Source: Candidatus Nomurabacteria bacterium (lineage in GTDB: Bacteria; Patescibacteriota; Saccharimonadia; Saccharimonadales; VXPC01). From it: DNA of 64,000 bases. The translations under genes were made by a program, and so were the position numbers. The stretch lies in NCBI GenBank assembly GCA_020631905.1, contig JACKGQ010000001.1:421854-485853 (forward strand), in the 5' to 3' direction. Positions 999 to 45,567 of this stretch are shown here, in pieces. Under the pieces are notes generated by a model. The model searched no databases. It was given only the letters and a program-made list of their open reading frames with translations, and was not told the origin of the DNA. Position 1 is the stretch's first letter; each line of letters starts with the position of its first letter.

Positions 999-1027
999 AA
1001 AAAGACCCATATATTTGGGTCTTTTTG
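999..1027 (+). terminator. Rho-independent terminator after tsf
   Basis: AAAAAGACCCA (999-1009), loop TATATT, TGGGTCTTTTT (1016-1026). The 11-bp stem has A and T tracts on both sides. Confidence 0.8.
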
Positions 1028-1326: not shown

Positions 1327-1638
1327 ACTCACATACTTAAGCTCAGTAAGCTTGCTAATCTCGGGTTTGGGTTCATAAAGATCCGTTTAGGTTTATCTGA
1401 AAGTTTAAGTCAATCTTATACTTCTGAGGACTACCAGGTTAGCGATAGCTAAACTTTCCGCAAGAACAGATTTAAACTTATAGATAAAACTAGTAGTGAT
1501 CTTCATTCTACCCAAGAGCTTTTGTAATACTTTTGGCGGGCAAAAGTATTAAAGATACATTTTCGCTTTACATCCGCTAGCTAGCGGAAAGCTCATCAGT
1601 TACAGTTTAACTGTAATAATGTATTCACAAGGAGAACA

Positions 1639-1683
1639 CTGCCACCGGCTCATTCGCTATTGCTAGCGAAGAGCCGGTGGCAG
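1639..1683 (-). terminator. Long GC-rich hairpin downstream of the GC-rich minus-strand gene
   Basis: CTGCCACCGGCTC (1639-1651) pairs perfectly with GAGCCGGTGGCAG (1671-1683). An inner TTCGCTA/TAGCGAA pairing extends the stem. It lies 6 nt after the stop at 1690. The downstream U-tract on the minus strand is only moderate. Confidence 0.6.
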
Positions 1684-1689
1684 GTGCAG

Positions 1690-2202
1690 TCACGAGGCGG
1701 TGATGTCGCCTCGACTGTTGTGGCTGCGGTCGAACAGGTTGGCCACGTTCGAGCCGTATTGGGCCCGCAGCTGGTCCCGCAGGTCGGTGTCGTTTGTCGG
1801 ACGGATCTTGCGTAGCGCAGCACTGTTTACCTGGCCGTTCATCAGCTGCCGGCGACGCTCGCTGAGCACCTGCCAGAGCTGCCGCCCGGCGGCGCTGACG
1901 CGCGTCGGCTGGATCACGGTCATACGACCGAAGATCAGCCAGAGCACGCCGGCAATCGCCAGACGCTGCAGTGTCAGCTCGCCGATGTCGGTGGCGCCAG
2001 TCAGAAGCGGACTCCACTCGGGCATGGGCTGGTAGGTCCAGTCTGTGGCGTAGTCGAGCAGCGCCCAGGCGGCCACGAACTTCCACGCTTCGTGGAAGAG
2101 CATCGCCAGCGTGCTGAGCACGCCGAAGATATAGATCATCGCAGTGACGGCAGCCGCCACTGCGATGATCAGGAACTCGGGGCCTGTCAGCAGGTCGAGC
2201 AT
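1690..2202 (-). CDS. Hypothetical membrane protein encoded on a GC-rich island (170 aa)
   Basis: ATG is preceded by AAGGAG (2210-2215) with a 7-nt spacer. Two or three predicted TM helices at the N-terminus and a charged C-terminal half. G+C is visibly far above the flanks. Two other long ORFs overlap it, as expected in GC-rich DNA. Confidence 0.7.
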   Translation of the reverse strand: MLDLLTGPEFLIIAVAAAVTAMIYIFGVLSTLAMLFHEAWKFVAAWALLDYATDWTYQPMPEWSPLLTGATDIGELTLQRLAIAGVLWLIFGRMTVIQPTRVSAAGRQLWQVLSERRRQLMNGQVNSAALRKIRPTNDTDLRDQLRAQYGSNVANLFDRSHNSRGDITAS

Positions 2203-2364
2203 GGTGTTTCTCCTTGTGGTGTGCGTCGACGGGTAGGCAAGACGCCCAACCTCACTAATCGAACAAACATATTATAGCACAAAGTAATAAAAAAGTAAAT
2301 CAGTGCACTAATTTCGATAGGTAAAATGCCATAGCTCTAGACTATGCAAAGCCTTAAACAAACA

Positions 2365-2393
2365 TTGACAAACCGTAAAGCTTATGCTAATAT
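2365..2393 (+). promoter_or_regulatory. Sigma-70-type promoter for the 357-aa orphan gene
   Basis: TTGACA (2365-2370), 17-nt spacer, TAATAT (2388-2393), with TGC immediately upstream (extended -10). Confidence 0.65.
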
Positions 2394-2468: not shown

Positions 2469-3542
2469 ATGAGCGAAACAGCACCACAATCTAACTACGA
2501 ACAAGAACTCGACAAAGCCATTGGAGACATGGCAGGATTCGATCAGCATCGAAGGGCTGGTTTTGCGCCGGGTAGGTTCGATAATAGGGGTTTTGGCAAT
2601 GTCTATGCAGATGCGAGTCAGGACGCCAGCACACTAACATATGGCGACATTACGGGTGGTGAGGGGCAGCCTAAAATTGTAGGAGATTTGTATTTAGCAC
2701 ACACTGACAATGCTGGCTACGGCTATGATCACGACATACTAGTAGACAGAAGTGGTGGGAGTGGCGCAACAGTCGATGAATATGTTGCAAAACACGACGG
2801 CGACGTAACTATCGAGCGGATTGATCGTAACACCGGGCAGACAGTTTATGAATCAAAATTATCCGGCGAGAAGGCGGCCAAAGCTAAAGAAATTTTAACC
2901 CGATTAGCACTACGCTATGCGAACGAAAAAATCGAAGCTTCCAACGACCCTGAGTTAGTTCAAAAATATGTCGACGAAGCATTCGAACATGTTGAAGCCC
3001 AAGTTGAAGATGAACGTAAAGACTTGCGTAGTGGTGACGAAAAACAAATCCGGGCGGACGCACTTTTGTATCCCGAGACTCATCATTTAGCAAAGCTTGA
3101 GGAAAACGACGCCCAGTCATGGGGCCGTGAGATAGCTTATGTGTTAAAAGAGGATCCACTATATATAGAGCGAGCTTTGCCTCAACTCGAGGCGGCTAGC
3201 CCAGAGACCGTCGAACAGCTCAAGGATATGATAAAAAATAAACTACGACTTCAGCGAGCTGCCAAATATACGCTGAGTAGACACAAAGAGTACTCTACAG
3301 CTAGTCAGCTGTATAGCGTGCTCGAGCAGCTTGGGGTTAAAGTTGGTCGTTACGATAGGCTAAGTAACCCTGCACTCGAGTCTCAGATAAACGATCTTGC
3401 TACAAGGTTAAAGACAAACATGAAGGTTAGGCGCGTTCTCGAGGGTACATTTCGTTCAGCTTCGTCTAGAGTAAATTATCGTCGCCGAAATGCCCCAAGC
3501 AATCATCTGGCAAACGATAGCCCCACGCAGCTAGCCGCCTAG
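2469..3542 (+). CDS. Hypothetical protein (357 aa), acidic and helical, no signal peptide
   Basis: Long ORF with its own consensus promoter. I recognise no motif. Confidence 0.75.
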   Translation: MSETAPQSNYEQELDKAIGDMAGFDQHRRAGFAPGRFDNRGFGNVYADASQDASTLTYGDITGGEGQPKIVGDLYLAHTDNAGYGYDHDILVDRSGGSGATVDEYVAKHDGDVTIERIDRNTGQTVYESKLSGEKAAKAKEILTRLALRYANEKIEASNDPELVQKYVDEAFEHVEAQVEDERKDLRSGDEKQIRADALLYPETHHLAKLEENDAQSWGREIAYVLKEDPLYIERALPQLEAASPETVEQLKDMIKNKLRLQRAAKYTLSRHKEYSTASQLYSVLEQLGVKVGRYDRLSNPALESQINDLATRLKTNMKVRRVLEGTFRSASSRVNYRRRNAPSNHLANDSPTQLAA

Positions 3543-4176: not shown

Positions 4177-4210
4177 TAGATCTTGGATCTTAGAGCTCAG
4201 AGCTTAGAGT
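4177..4210. repeat. Left arm: heptamer array and inverted repeat flanking the four-helix-bundle gene
   Basis: AGATCTT GGATCTT AGAGCTC AGAGCTT AGAGT. 4177-4195 is the reverse complement of 4570-4588 with one mismatch. Confidence 0.9.
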
Positions 4211-4567
4211 ATGTCGACCTACGATTATAAAAAACTAGAAGTCTGGCAGCGTTCCATGAAATTTGTAGTAGCAGTATATTCGGTGTGCGAAAAACTACCC
4301 GACTACGAGAAATATTCATTAGCAGATCAGCTTCGAAGAGCTAGCGTATCGATCCCGTCGAATATTGCAGAGGGACAAAAGCGTGCCAATAAAAAGGAAA
4401 CTGTTCAGTTTACTTATGTTGCCATTAGCTCGCTAGCAGAAGTTGAGACGCAGCTGATACTTGCAAGTAGACTTCACGGCGTAAAAACAGATGATTTATT
4501 AACAGAATGTGAGATAATTGGCCGCATGCTCACAGCACTAACAAACTCTTTGAAGAGGATAAAATGA
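4211..4567 (+). CDS. Four-helix-bundle protein (23S rRNA intervening-sequence protein family)
   Basis: Family-typical KKLEVWQ...A..VY......P..EKYSLADQLRRASVSIPSNIAEGQ....KE...F..A..SL.E..TQL pattern. 118 aa. Confidence 0.88.
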   Translation: MSTYDYKKLEVWQRSMKFVVAVYSVCEKLPDYEKYSLADQLRRASVSIPSNIAEGQKRANKKETVQFTYVAISSLAEVETQLILASRLHGVKTDDLLTECEIIGRMLTALTNSLKRIK

Positions 4568-5283
4568 GCCTCCAAGATCCAAGATCTAAGATCAAAGATC
4601 TAATTCCAAAGCATATTGGGATTATCTTAGATGGTAATCGGCGGTGGGCCGAAGAAAACGGTTTACCGACAATGGAAGGCCACCGAAAAGGTGCCGACAA
4701 TATCGAGTTCGTTGCCGAAGCCTTGTTTGATAAAGGTGTCGAGTATGTGTCTTTATTTGTATTTTCTACCGAAAACTGGAAACGGACTACCGAGGAAGTT
4801 GGCTATCTGATGAAGTTATTTGTAAAGCTGTTCAAAAAAGACAGCCAGCGTTTGATTGATCGAGGTTATCGAATTCTGTTTGCCGGACGACGTGATGGCA
4901 AGATTAACAAAGATATAAGTGAGGCAATCGAAGATCTCGAAGACAGTTCTAAAAATGGTAAGAATGGCACACTTGTTTTTTGCTTCAACTACGGCGGCAC
5001 AACCGAGATAGTCGATGCGGTTAAAGGTATTGTTGAGTCTGGCATAAATCCCGAAGATATCGATGAGCAAACATTGTCCGAAAACATGTATCAACCAGAA
5101 GTCCCACCAATCGATCTGCTGGTGCGGACAAGCGGCGAACAAAGAATCAGTGGTTTTCAGCTATGGCGAGCAGCTTATGCAGAACTGTTGTTTATTGATA
5201 AACACTGGCCAGATTTTAGTCCGGCCGATGCTACAATGATTATCGATGAATTTTCGGCGCGTAACCGGCGGTTTGGAGGCTAA
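4564..5283 (+). CDS. uppS: Isoprenyl transferase / undecaprenyl-diphosphate synthase
   Basis: HIGIILDGNRRWA, FSTENWKR and RTSGEQRISGFQLW motifs. The ATG overlaps the upstream stop (ATGA). Confidence 0.92.
   Translation: MSLQDPRSKIKDLIPKHIGIILDGNRRWAEENGLPTMEGHRKGADNIEFVAEALFDKGVEYVSLFVFSTENWKRTTEEVGYLMKLFVKLFKKDSQRLIDRGYRILFAGRRDGKINKDISEAIEDLEDSSKNGKNGTLVFCFNYGGTTEIVDAVKGIVESGINPEDIDEQTLSENMYQPEVPPIDLLVRTSGEQRISGFQLWRAAYAELLFIDKHWPDFSPADATMIIDEFSARNRRFGG
4570..4603. repeat. Right arm: heptamer array in inverse orientation, inside the first codons of uppS
   Basis: CCAAGAT CCAAGAT CTAAGAT CAAAGAT CTAA. It pairs with 4177-4195. Confidence 0.9.
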
Positions 5284-44298: not shown

Positions 44299-45567
44299 TT
44301 ATTTTCTTACTAAAACTAATAATTCTCGCGCAACAACTTGGCCTGGCCTGTGGTAGATCAGATCTTGCCGACGAGCATGTTTAAAATCTAGCCGATTATA
44401 GCCGAATTCCTCGAGAGAGTCAAGTAGTGGCAAGTGCTTGAAACTGGAGCTTAGATCTTGGAGCTTAGATCTTGGAGCACTTACTGCCCAGGCAGGGACA
44501 GCTATGCACATCCGAGTGCCAGATCTGGTTTGGGAGGCTAAGTTGCGCAAGAATTGGCTAAGCAGGTGATTTACATTGGTTATGTTTTGTTCGAGCTGTT
44601 CCAGCTCGGGCAGCTTAAAGTAGGCTTCGCCAAGAAATGTCTCGCAGGCAACAGCGCCGATCTCTGGTTTGGCTGAAACCGGTTGGTTAACATCTTTTAA
44701 GAAATCTAGCCAGTTAGCCGAACAGGCATCAGCAGGTTCGTAAGTTGTGTGGCCACCTTCAGGTACAATCGATGATGTTAACTTTTTGTTGGCCCAGATG
44801 CCATTGTCGGCGGCCATCTTAACCATTCGCGGCTCAAGGTCGGTGTTCGCCCTATAGGCTAGACCCATTAAGTACGCTTCGATGTTTATGACGCCAGTAC
44901 CACAAAAAGGATCAAGGAGGTATTCGTCGGATAAATCTTCGAGTTTAGGGCAGGCAAGATTGATGATGATTTGGGCTAGTTTGGGTGGCAACATGCCGAC
45001 TTTTGCGTCGCGGGCTGGACGGGAACGATCGCGGTAAGTATAGGCGTCGAGGTCTTGGATAGCGACAGTTTGGGCAATGATTGTCTGATTATCCCGCCGA
45101 ACAAGACAAAGCTCCCAGCCTTTCGAGTGGAGTTTGTTGTGCAGAACCTGAGCGTCGTTTAATGTTTGGCTATAGGTTGGGACAAGCCGGACGTTTCGTC
45201 CGGTACGTTTAACTGCTTTTTTGATGTTTAGGCCAAGTTTTTCGATCTGTTTCTGGCCAAAATCTAGACCGTAAACAGATACACCAATCGATAATTTTCC
45301 TTCGGGCCACTGCTGCACATGTTCGACGCAGGCAACAGCCAAGAACTTTTCTATATCGGCTAATTTAGTGGAGTCGAGAACAGTTAAGACTTTGGCAAGT
45401 TTAGTACTACCACCGAGTCGATAAAATGGAACTTGTCCGGACTCGATGTCGAGCAGGGCAATTTGACCGAATGTATCAGCGATCGCCGCGTCTCCAAAAA
45501 GGCTCTCGAGCTCGGCGAGGCTAAGTTTTGGTTGTCGACCCAAAAATATAATTGTTTGGTAGTTCAC
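44299..45567 (-). CDS. Class I SAM-dependent methyltransferase, Trm11/UPF0020-like (putative RNA guanine-N2 MTase)
   Basis: MLPPKLAQIIINLA followed by LDPFCGTGV (SAM motif I). I prefer the GTG at 45567, which gives MNYQTIIFLGRQPKLSLAELE. The ORF track extends to a TTG at 45642. Confidence 0.7.
   Translation of the reverse strand: MNYQTIIFLGRQPKLSLAELESLFGDAAIADTFGQIALLDIESGQVPFYRLGGSTKLAKVLTVLDSTKLADIEKFLAVACVEHVQQWPEGKLSIGVSVYGLDFGQKQIEKLGLNIKKAVKRTGRNVRLVPTYSQTLNDAQVLHNKLHSKGWELCLVRRDNQTIIAQTVAIQDLDAYTYRDRSRPARDAKVGMLPPKLAQIIINLACPKLEDLSDEYLLDPFCGTGVINIEAYLMGLAYRANTDLEPRMVKMAADNGIWANKKLTSSIVPEGGHTTYEPADACSANWLDFLKDVNQPVSAKPEIGAVACETFLGEAYFKLPELEQLEQNITNVNHLLSQFLRNLASQTRSGTRMCIAVPAWAVSAPRSKLQDLSSSFKHLPLLDSLEEFGYNRLDFKHARRQDLIYHRPGQVVARELLVLVRK
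44446..44480. repeat. Heptamer array inside the methyltransferase CDS (perfect 14-bp unit repeated twice)
   Basis: GGAGCTT AGATCTT GGAGCTT AGATCTT GGAGCAC. Confidence 0.9.

Follow-up and report, generated by a model that had tools for sequence, protein, structure and literature searches.

The locus considered here raises the question of why one small gene of a Saccharibacteria genome is far richer in G+C than the DNA around it. In the window (the whole 64-kb stretch of DNA that was analysed), the 593-nt block at 1626-2218 contains 63.7% G+C against 44.8% for the whole (z = 6.6; mean 0.448 and sd 0.029 over 593-nt windows), bearing out by calculation an excess that a preliminary description had judged by eye. 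It is the richest 593-nt segment and the sole such island of the window, where the G+C of other 300-nt windows is at most 0.54. The same description took a pair of short inverted repeats as the limits of the block and proposed that they are the ends either of an imported cassette or of an invertible segment. The inverted repeat is real, but the high G+C continues to about 2255, approximately 40 nt past the right arm, hence this arm is not a block boundary. The GC-rich stretch matches the part of the transcript that is enclosed by predicted pairing, and the adjoining promoter (17% G+C) and hammerhead motif (36%) are host-like. All sequence data are metagenome assemblies, and the features discussed below are collected in Table 1.

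Table 1. Features of the GC-rich locus and its borders, in window coordinates.
Feature	Position	Strand	Remarks
Bidirectional hairpin terminator of the convergent tsf	1000-1025	.	Alignment of hairpin and U-run
Type III hammerhead ribozyme motif	1555-1624	-	Core, three helices, recurrence in L086 and L088
Hammerhead stem III	1624-1618 with 1561-1555	-	
Hammerhead H17 = A1617	1617|1616	-	Predicted cleavage
Hammerhead stem I hairpin	1616-1600	-	
Hammerhead core CUGAUGA	1599-1593	-	
Hammerhead stem II	1592-1565	-	
Hammerhead GAA	1564-1562	-	
Hammerhead A15.1	1561	-	Paired, A1561-U1618
Inverted-repeat 3′ arm (anti-SD) GUGUUCUCCUUGUG	1626-1639	-	Predicted to pair with 2218-2204
GC hairpin	1639-1683	-	13 perfect pairs (1639-1651/1671-1683); 45 nt, nearly palindromic; 7 nt past the stop codon
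CDS of the 170-aa protein	1690-2202	-	64.7% G+C, GC3 0.85; orthologues in L086 and L088
Near-perfect hairpin in the CDS	2134-2170	-	17 pairs (10 G-C); 18-nt arms, 94% complementary; TM1 coding region
Inverted-repeat 5′ arm CACAAGGAGAAACAC	2204-2218	-	Includes Shine-Dalgarno AAGGAG (2215-2210); core CACAAGGAGA invariant in L086 and L088
GC-rich 5′ UTR	2219-2264	-	58.7% G+C; hairpin ~2248-2234 and conserved CGACGCAC box; alignment, folding
Promoter of the GC-rich gene	2271-2299	-	-35 TTTACT, 17-nt spacer, extended -10 TGCTATAAT; consensus 10/12, TG present
Divergent sigma-70-type promoter	2365-2393	+	TTGACA, 17 nt, TAATAT; consensus 10/12; serves gene 2469-3542

Three ORFs longer than 100 aa overlap in the block on both strands, as described earlier and verified by ORF listing. 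The minus-strand ORF singled out in that description is the true gene, since its G+C at the three codon positions (0.63, 0.46 and 0.85) follows the signature of the coding frame in GC-rich DNA, while the GC3 of host genes in the window is 0.42-0.49; its Shine-Dalgarno (SD) sequence indeed lies 7 nt ahead of the ATG at 2202. The N-terminal half of the product is hydrophobic according to hydropathy, and its C-terminal half is helical and rich in Arg. Of the N-terminal transmembrane (TM) helices announced earlier, the hydrophobic segment itself is clear, while the number that can be claimed is one to three. The AlphaFold (AF2) model built from two sequences is all-helical, with a pLDDT of 57 and a pTM of 0.24, which makes it too weak for a fold search.

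The gene is rare, being confined to a few Saccharibacteria; it evolves fast and encodes a membrane protein. Neither the 170-aa protein nor its orthologues nor the neighbouring proteins of the gap match Pfam, PHROGs or PADLOC, and no homologue was found among 5.8 billion protein clusters. When 1.84 billion representatives were scanned exhaustively with HMMER, the syntenic Saccharibacteria copies alone were returned, and a profile search from the two-sequence alignment added no further family members. In total, across about 15 billion proteins, phages and plasmids, the relatives amount to two distant orthologues (24-36% identity): P0003 of L086 (36%, E 1e-22) and that of L088 (24-35%). The proteins of the three lineages have 170, 171 and 188 aa, with a hydrophobic N-terminal and a charged C-terminal half.

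The promoter of the gene is nearly invariant across the three lineages and host-like in composition (16.7% G+C); transcription would start at about 2264, and the hairpin of the 5′ UTR is predicted in all three mRNAs. The upstream block ...TTAGCATAAGCTTTAC..TTGTCAATG with the divergent promoter is likewise conserved in L086 and L088. The gene served by this promoter was considered as a member of the module and rejected, the genes at the same position in L086 and L088 being non-homologous. At the other end, read-through transcripts of the module probably stop at the terminator of tsf, and the equivalent terminator of L088, AAAAAACCUCCC...GGGAGGUUUUUU, is located 2 nt after the hammerhead. A consensus promoter scan inside and beside the gene, with non-consensus promoters outside its reach, revealed no antisense RNA promoter, and inspection of the three ORF sequences by eye gave no conserved AT-rich box.

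Recent import from a high-GC organism, an actinobacterial host or its phage, would account for strongly atypical composition and codon usage in a gene that has not yet ameliorated, with the repeats as cassette ends. The module is missing from close relatives (L090, L091, L092, L094 and L096) and from most GTDB Saccharibacteria, in which tsf is directly followed by frr, and the gene content of the tsf-frr gap varies from lineage to lineage, both of which fit an import. However, no homologue exists outside the syntenic Saccharibacteria orthologues: tblastn against 50,697 phage records, the phage origin suggested in the preliminary description, and against 72,556 plasmids gave nothing even at E <= 1. 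Furthermore, the module occupies this one site in three lineages (the window, L086/L087 and L088) whose EF-Ts is 84% (L086/L087) and 80-81% (L088) identical to that of the window. Both orthologues have 61% G+C in hosts of 44-45%, and the three copies have a GC3 of 0.85, 0.80 and 0.82, against 0.28-0.49 in host genes. The copies are as diverged as their hosts; synonymous differences are saturated in tsf, frr and uppS (pS 0.73-0.82), and the GC-rich gene itself has a pS of 0.59 and a third-position identity of 0.44. Because the orthologues stay GC-rich despite this saturation, the high G+C has been maintained and is not an import residue. In addition, the GC-rich block runs past the right arm, and no integrase, att site or target duplication was found. 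The window contains no tRNA or tmRNA, hence no tRNA-linked integration site. The imported cassette is accordingly given up here, as very unlikely. An insertion sequence or MITE was also considered and dropped, the sole ORF encoding a membrane protein and CACAAGGAGA being confined to the two arms within the 64 kb; no direct repeat is formed by the bases beside them (GTATT / GTGTG).

The repeats themselves are as first described: perfect over 11 nt (1626-1636 / 2208-2218) and 14/15 nt long with one indel, the right copy including the ribosome-binding site (RBS). A search for further copies, which had been proposed for the genome and was run on the 64-kb window, found CACAAGGAGA at both arms only. 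A perfect 11-nt inverted repeat occurs in 3 of 8600 comparably spaced zone pairs of the window, and among its 66 ORFs of at least 120 aa, this gene alone has a complement of at least 10 nt between the SD zone and the 3′ flank. In the relatives, too, the gene comes with the repeat, so that the gene without the repeat, a refuting condition of the preliminary description, is not what they show; this argues that the repeat is functional. The three loci share one frame, namely the extended -10, the SD arm CACAAGGAGA, the ORF, a GC hairpin, the anti-SD UCUCCUUGUG and the hammerhead, and all elements other than the ORF are conserved while the protein retains merely 24-36% identity. The core of the 3′ arm, UCUCCUUGUGAA, is invariant in the three lineages.

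SD-carrying inverted repeats at both ends, together with long stop-free frames on the opposite strand, are what an invertible DNA switch would require. A site-specific recombinase would flip the 590 bp enclosed by the 14/15-nt repeats, so that the RBS stays promoter-proximal and the expressed strand is swapped, and the inverted junction would join the left flank …AATGTATT plus arm to CATGCTCGACCTG. Some known switches have repeats equally short, those of fimS being 9 bp. Against a switch, a single orientation is present in all 9 contigs seen of the three lineages (the window, L001-L005, L086, L087 and L088), no recombinase is encoded in the gap of any lineage, and the promoter lies outside the repeat. 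Past the left arm, the plus strand enters the GC hairpin and offers no start codon at RBS distance; the open frames of the opposite strand differ in relative frame among the three loci, and a strand-specific ribozyme motif lies just outside the distal arm. Contigs L004 and L005 break at 1668, away from the arms; a structural variant was rejected as the cause, for the break is at the centre of the 45-nt near-palindrome, where in our reasoning assemblers are expected to stop. An invertible segment, the second proposal of the preliminary description, is therefore extremely unlikely.

Since both arms are invariant, they are without covariation, and sequence alone cannot separate RNA pairing from a role at the DNA level. 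The evidence nevertheless points to the RNA level, as SD:anti-SD pairing, rather than to a recombination site. The SD:anti-SD helix is part of the predicted MFE and centroid folds of all three mRNAs, in which it closes the whole ORF, with arm duplex energies of -21.6, -20.6 and -19.8 kcal/mol. Inside this domain, the perfect 13-bp hairpin noted earlier after the gene is present and lacks a following T-run, hence it is not a canonical terminator; L086 and L088 have structurally equivalent GC hairpins of different sequence. The hairpin within the TM1 coding region appears in both the MFE and centroid folds and contributes to the unusual degree of structure of the mRNA. By eye, L086 has a shorter hairpin at the equivalent position. 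Compared with dinucleotide shuffles, the three mRNAs fold with z = -13.2, -4.8 and -5.45, folds of 650 nt being unreliable in detail. Compared with synonymous-codon shuffles, the CDS alone gives z = -5.3, -2.8 and -2.9, against +0.7 to -1.4 for four host genes.

Directly beyond the anti-SD, all three loci carry a type III hammerhead motif (L086: 10582-10650, core CUGAUGA; L088: 2188-2122, core CUGACGA; H17 = C in both). All core nucleotides are present in the three lineages, with Watson-Crick closing pairs 1.1-2.1, 10.1-11.1 and 15.1-16.1 and stems of 6, 5 and 7 bp. In the alignment of the three sequences, 94.4% of the cells are paired and four double changes are distributed over all three helices, against 24-49% and none in slid-partner controls; the covariation score was equalled in 24 of 500 shuffles, a test of low power with three sequences only. 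A descriptor search of 975 kb matched at these module loci alone, once per locus, and a second, upstream ribozyme, as needed for a circular RNA, was rejected on this count. A candidate pairing between loop I and the stem II loop, UAUG:CAUA, was seen by eye in L088 only.

Rfam 15 recognised no hammerhead family in the window, L086 or L088, either at the gathering threshold or, with stretches of roughly 100 nt, at E <= 10, and no other credible family in the three; a penalty on stem II, which is long and bulged, may be the reason. A pattern scan of JGI metagenomes for the anti-SD with the hammerhead gave no match, and for the hammerhead alone a single one (L093), in a 31% G+C genome that is Bacteroidota-like by composition. 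The latter was judged a chance match, as its stems I and II are poor and a GC-rich gene is lacking. Three pattern scans of viral contigs gave no match, and the literature searched holds no link between hammerheads and Saccharibacteria.

The missing Rfam call and the lack of covariation in the arms leave room for an old resident gene whose RNA features are incidental, located in a gap that is a hot spot of gene turnover. Its G+C would then stem from GC-biased gene conversion, the site being a recombination hot spot, or from an ancient import, the 3′ arm would be due to chance or related to termination, and the motif would be inactive or unrelated; any GC-rich sequence, moreover, folds stably. 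However, the excess structure persists against dinucleotide and synonymous-codon shuffles, in which composition is kept, the ribozyme has compensatory changes in all three helices, and the chance rate of the 11-nt inverted repeat is about 3/8600. In addition, conservation extends over the 12-nt anti-SD block and the entire hammerhead, in contrast to the hairpin beside them and the ORF, which have become nearly impossible to align. Incidental RNA features are thus considered unlikely.

Building on the computed composition, synteny, conservation of all elements, ribozyme covariation and excess structure, we propose that the locus encodes a ribozyme-trimmed, translationally locked and stable mRNA, and that it is a small accessory module of a narrow Saccharibacteria subclade in the variable tsf-frr gap. 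We regard this proposal as having an even chance of being correct. The host-type extended -10 promoter would drive a GC-rich, highly structured mRNA for the fast-evolving small membrane protein, and transcription would continue through the GC hairpin and the anti-SD into the type III hammerhead. Self-cleavage, predicted 9 nt past the anti-SD (1617|1616), would remove the ribozyme and the terminator and leave a 2′,3′-cyclic phosphate end. The anti-SD UCUCCUUGUG could then pair with the SD region CACAAGGAGA, which lies 560 nt upstream, closing the ORF into one domain and hiding the RBS. Through this pairing, which would have to occlude the SD in vivo, the mature mRNA would be compact, nuclease-resistant and translationally locked until some trigger leads to the opening or trimming of the 3′ arm. 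The high G+C may be kept by selection for stable RNA structure rather than persist as a foreign residue. An argument against the lock is that a 3′ element occluding the SD cannot prevent translation while transcription proceeds.

A stronger version of this proposal, which we consider unlikely, is that the locus represents a novel type of module under RNA control. Here a genomic hammerhead would have a defined task, trimming a coding mRNA that is then locked by its cyclic-phosphate-capped 3′ anti-SD as a GC-rich, nuclease-proof and silent molecule. If true, it would provide a ribozyme-matured dormant mRNA for a toxin, should the product have any toxicity, or for an effector in an ultra-small epibiotic bacterium, and selection on RNA structure would be so strong as to keep the G+C of a coding gene 19 points above that of its genome.

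With its type III hammerhead, its strong self-structure and a single orphan ORF in about 650 nt, the locus also recalls viroid-like and Obelisk RNAs. It could thus derive from, or still act as, an RNA-first element, a viroid-, retrozyme- or Obelisk-like replicon or a retroelement that was copied into DNA and whose protein is encoded by the ORF, and the patchy distribution of the module among close relatives would fit such an origin. However, there is one ribozyme per locus, which makes unit-length excision or circularisation impossible, and the predicted fold is branched, not rod-like. The chromosomal site is constant and the promoter is that of the host; moreover, there is no reverse transcriptase nearby, no second copy of the module in the window and no paralogue in protein databases. 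An RNA-first origin has, in our view, a very low probability.

If the trimmed and locked mRNA is real, the locus gives a candidate role to its hammerhead, the formation of a 3′ end beside the anti-SD that closes the mRNA. The roles of the hundreds of hammerheads in bacterial genomes are still open (PMC3088659, PMC6155905), and the locus provides a minimal context of a single gene with a concrete, testable role. The gene would also be a rare case in which selection at the RNA level has altered codon usage over an entire gene. The locus further warns against reading every marked local excess of G+C as foreign DNA when horizontal transfer is detected from composition, for here the excess has outlasted saturating divergence and overlaps with surplus mRNA structure. 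Finally, Saccharibacteria, whose accessory biology is little known, gain a fast-evolving family of orphan membrane proteins and a predicted ribozyme that had not been annotated.

Compared with known systems, the locus resembles the fimS and hin switches in its short inverted repeats around a segment of about 0.6 kb, and differs from them by the lack of a recombinase, a promoter outside the segment and the single orientation seen. With horizontally acquired genes it shares a G+C about 19 points above the genome, a variable gap and a patchy distribution. Unlike these, it has no donor homologue, three orthologues retain its anomaly although synonymous sites are saturated, and its limits coincide with those of a structured transcript domain and not with integration junctions.

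At its full length, the mRNA of aapA1 is stable and inert owing to an 11-bp helix between its 5′ and 3′ ends, in which the SD is sequestered until 3′ processing activates the molecule (PMC5416894). Similar to the mRNAs of hok/Sok and aapA1/IsoA1 (PMC5416894, PMC9841398), a long-distance 5′-3′ helix of about 11 bp over the SD is predicted here, and, as for hok and aapA1, the mRNA is predicted to be compact and stable and encodes a hydrophobic membrane protein. However, type I toxins have 30-50 aa (below about 60), whereas the 170-188 aa found here are three times the typical size; the consensus promoter scan found no promoter for an antisense antitoxin RNA, and the G+C is extreme relative to the genome, unlike in hok/Sok and aapA1/IsoA1. 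Furthermore, 3′ processing by the ribozyme would leave the anti-SD in place, whereas trimming by an exonuclease takes it away.

Published bacterial hammerheads occur mostly in prophage contexts, often as several ribozymes that flank genes, and their role is unknown (PMC3088659, PMC6155905; Perreault et al. 2011, De la Pena et al. 2017). The motif described here agrees with the bacterial type III hammerheads in its core CUGANGA...GAAA, its three helices with an open stem III, its U16.1-H17 cleavage site and its location beside an ORF with no known function. In contrast to the published examples, it is single, lies 3′ of one chromosomal gene and abuts an anti-SD, in Saccharibacteria.

The GC-rich segment at 1626-2218 reaches 63.7% G+C against 44.8% overall (z = 6.6, 593-nt windows) and is a unique anomaly in the window, where the next richest 300-nt window stands at 0.54. 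The proposal that the minus-strand ORF is its gene (hereafter the GC gene, encoding 170 aa) is borne out by G+C values of 0.63, 0.46 and 0.85 at codon positions 1, 2 and 3, the true-frame pattern for GC-rich DNA; GC3 of host genes lies at 0.42-0.49. An AAGGAG is indeed found 7 nts upstream from the ATG, and the 13-bp perfect hairpin is confirmed downstream from the stop codon; it lacks a U-tract. The inverted repeat, formed by an arm containing this Shine-Dalgarno (SD) sequence and a 3′ arm (anti-SD), is perfect over 11 nts and extends to arms of 14 and 15 nts with one indel. Its 10-nt core has no other occurrence in the 64 kb, and an 11-nt inverted repeat was found in 3 out of 8600 comparably spaced zone pairs. 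The claim that the arms delimit the block needs correction at the right arm, where the GC-rich stretch runs about 40 nts further into the 5′ UTR.

The window sequence is matched exactly by independent NCBI, ENA and Logan assemblies. One further contig (L001, ENA ERZ28655749, 951 nts) matches positions 2504-2053 exactly, then continues into unrelated high-GC DNA with LpxH-like and cyclophilin-like fragments (by eye), which suggests a proteobacterial source. The most probable reading is a chimera that arose during assembly within the GC gene; the contig gave rise to the spurious protein P0002. Two independent short contigs (L004 and L005) both end at 1668, the centre of the 45-nt near-palindromic post-stop hairpin, a candidate structural variant that was interpreted instead as an assembler break at the palindrome.

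The 170-aa protein has no match in Pfam, PHROG or PADLOC, nor by tblastn (E <= 1) in 50,697 phage and 72,556 plasmid records, and among 5.8 billion protein clusters it retrieves only itself and one chimeric fragment. When 1.84 billion representatives were scanned exhaustively with HMMER, P0003 was the one real relative to emerge (171 aa, 36-37% identity, E 1e-22). Its gene lies in the tsf-frr gap of another Saccharibacteria contig (L086/L087), whose housekeeping proteins are 80-88% identical to those of the window, in the same orientation as the window copy; inversion of the DNA between the repeat arms, as once proposed, is poorly supported. Sampling of close relatives via EF-Ts homologues added L088 as a third member; here the site carries an ORF of 188 aa that shares 24-35% identity with the other two. 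The site is empty in five close relatives. Among these are L090 and L091, with an EF-Ts that shares 86-87% identity with its L088 counterpart. Given the few carriers and the empty sites in near relatives, the module (the GC gene and its flanking conserved elements) is rare and patchy, and always at the tsf-frr site.

In most bacteria, pyrH is located between tsf and frr. In most Saccharibacteria retrieved, frr directly follows tsf with a spacing of 15-90 nts, while in the window this spacing is 2.6 kb and includes the GC gene. The remaining gap genes are wholly different among the three lineages (window, L086, L088), with no recognisable domain or recombinase in any of them. In other Saccharibacteria (L009, L010, L013, L017, L019, L038, L039 and L050), this gap is occupied over 0.3-3.6 kb by lineage-specific genes that are unrelated and have an ordinary G+C content; it looks like a general accessory-gene hot spot in the phylum.

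In a comparison resting on three sequences, all metagenome assemblies, identity among the lineages is 24-36% for the GC-gene protein versus 78-84% for EF-Ts. This fast divergence, the patchiness and the ever-changing neighbours would, speculatively, fit an accessory, conflict-related role. The GC gene has 61% G+C and a GC3 of 0.80-0.82 in L086 and L088, in loci of 44-45% G+C. Synonymous differences between the window and L086 are saturated in tsf, frr and uppS (pS 0.73-0.82); for the GC gene, pS is 0.59 and third-position identity 0.44, where random identity at its composition is roughly estimated at about 0.37. A neutral import should by then match host GC3, which it does in none of the three lineages, arguing that the composition is maintained rather than inherited from a donor. 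Hence the recent import of a GC-rich block, for which the preliminary description had speculatively suggested a host or host-phage origin, is poorly supported, as these searches found no donor family and GC3 was kept through saturating divergence. The extent of high G+C matches that of the structured, enclosed portion of the transcript, and host-like values are seen in the promoter (17% G+C) and the ribozyme motif (36%).

Alignments of the three loci revealed near-invariant blocks flanking an ORF diverged almost past nucleotide alignment.

Features of the window locus and equivalents in two related lineages (window coordinates unless stated)
Feature	Coordinates	Sequence or context
rpsB (3′ part)	window start	gene call
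tsf	380-979	gene call
frr	3620-4171	gene call
GC gene	1690-2202	minus strand
SD arm	2204-2218	CACAAGGAGA; 5′ UTR, after a small hairpin and then box CGACGCAC (alignment of three loci)
GC hairpin		3′ of stop codon; sequence different in each lineage
3′ arm (anti-SD)	1626-1639	invariant block UCUCCUUGUGAA, 3′ of GC hairpin
Conserved element, 67-70 nt (hammerhead motif)	1624-1555; L086 10582-10650; L088 2188-2122	starts 1-2 nt beyond UCUCCUUGUGAA
Bidirectional promoter block	2300-2468; L086 9810-9930; L088 2880-2960	conserved in three lineages
GC-gene promoter		TTTACT-17-TGCTATAAT; upstream bidirectional region
Divergent-neighbour promoter		TTGACA-17-TAATAT; upstream bidirectional region
Perfect AT palindrome	1060-1093	spacer 1026-1554
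24-nt inverted repeat	1388-1411/1469-1492	spacer 1026-1554
11-bp hairpin	1525-1551	spacer 1026-1554
IVP/bAvd-like gene	4211-4567	PF05635, E 5e-34
33-nt inverted repeat	4177-4209/4570-4602	82% complementary; brackets IVP/bAvd-like gene
GGATCTTAGAGCT-type motif sites	1299-1325, 4185-4197, 4582-4594, 44446-44472

The gene driven away from the module encodes 357, 293 and 354 aa in the window, L086 and L088, respectively, with no detectable homology among the three and no Pfam domain. In L088, its -10 box lies about 7 nts upstream from the ATG given in the annotation, so either the mRNA may be leaderless or the start may have been called wrongly.

Judged from its sequence, the conserved 3′ element is a motif with the canonical layout of a type III hammerhead. 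On the gene's strand, it reads AUACAUU-A/UUACAG-UUAAA-CUGUAA CUGAUGA GCUUU...AAAGC GAA AAUGUAU, in the order stem III strand, U16.1, H17, cleavage site (slash), stem I hairpin, CUGANGA core, stem II closed by G10.1-C11.1, G12-A13-A14 and A15.1 stem III strand. L086 and L088 (core CUGACGA) share this layout. Pairing of stem cells across the three hammerhead motifs is 94%, with four double-sided changes (U-A/C-G and C-G/U-A in stem I, U-A/C-G in stem II and in stem III), versus 24-49% pairing and no double change in slid-partner controls. Across 975 kb of DNA from Saccharibacteria and other sources, a simple descriptor matched these loci alone; it gave 4 minimal hits on three shuffles of the whole set. 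Rfam detected no hammerhead family at any of the three loci, even at E <= 10 on about 100-nt stretches. Stem II is unusual in being long and bulged. In L088, a textbook intrinsic terminator directly follows the motif, hence transcripts must include the putative ribozyme. A viroid-like or retroelement origin of the module is historically possible, but is opposed by the single ribozyme motif per locus, the branched predicted fold, the fixed chromosomal site and the lack of a reverse transcriptase.

JGI metagenomes gave a single hit for the hammerhead pattern (L093, contig LLBY010001848.1, 2032-2099, minus strand), located downstream of two small lipoprotein-like ORFs in a contig of 31% G+C, Bacteroidota-like by composition. 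Its stems I and II pair poorly, and it probably arose by chance, the alternative being a degenerate hammerhead.

The transcript was folded from about 2264, a start inferred from the promoter, to the predicted ribozyme cut at 1617. Folds of long RNAs are approximate. The window transcript reaches -326 kcal/mol, where its dinucleotide-shuffled versions give -261 +/- 5 (z = -13.2), and both the MFE and centroid predictions join the two repeat arms, enclosing the whole ORF. The same closing helix is predicted in L086 (fold z = -4.8) and L088 (z = -5.45), with arm duplexes of -19.8 to -21.6 kcal/mol. Among the 66 window ORFs of at least 120 aa, only the GC gene has a complement of at least 10 nts between SD zone and 3′ flank. 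Compared with synonymous-codon shuffles holding protein, codon usage and GC3 constant, the three coding regions are significantly more stable (z = -5.3, -2.8 and -2.9), while four host genes give non-significant values of +0.7 to -1.4, so that selection on mRNA structure can be seen at synonymous sites. Weighing against the RNA features being incidental are the shuffle tests, the compensatory changes, and the fact that the anti-SD and ribozyme motif are conserved beside diverged sequence. The high G+C could owe something to GC-biased conversion at a recombination hot spot, which leaves the excess structure unexplained. In the proposed mechanism, the host promoter would yield a GC-rich mRNA and the hammerhead would cut 9 nts past the anti-SD, removing ribozyme and terminator and leaving a cyclic-phosphate end; the anti-SD would pair with the SD region and lock the message.

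The spacer that separates the tsf terminator from the hammerhead motif is unusually long, non-coding and AT-rich (34% G+C); its equivalent is about 235 nts in L086, aligning weakly, and almost absent in L088 (about 50 nts). A dispersed motif, GGATCTTAGAGCT and its variants, has 7 matches versus 1.25 expected by chance, including one pair in this spacer and a tandem run at 44.4 kb. Beyond frr, the window contains an IVP/bAvd-like gene, uppS and rseP. The repeat bracketing the IVP/bAvd-like gene is composed of AGATCTT/AGAGCTT heptads, and its right arm reaches into the beginning of uppS, where the codons are not conserved. Because uppS immediately follows frr in L086, L088 and other relatives, the IVP/bAvd-like gene is a second single-gene insertion with bracketing inverted repeats, near the first.

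The predicted fold-back architecture is similar to that of the aapA1 and hok mRNAs. In aapA1, an 11-bp 5′-3′ helix sequestering the SD, high stability and activation by 3′ processing were shown experimentally (PMC5416894), as was the fold-back logic of hok (PMC9841398). However, substantial differences exist: the module's protein is 170-188 aa long and its C-terminal half is charged, a promoter scan detected no antisense RNA promoter at the GC gene, and processing would leave the anti-SD in place rather than remove it. By analogy, the module may thus resemble these systems in mRNA architecture, without being classed as a type I toxin-antitoxin. Bacterial hammerheads occur mostly near prophage genes, with unknown function (PMC3088659, PMC6155905), and in the literature searched no paper connected Saccharibacteria with hammerheads, or type I toxins with natural ones. 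Bacterial hammerheads and long-distance SD sequestration in type I toxin mRNAs are each already known singly; what appears to be new is the combination of a single 3′ hammerhead motif adjoining an anti-SD with a whole ORF within a hyper-structured domain, its G+C kept 16-19 points over that of the genome through saturating divergence.
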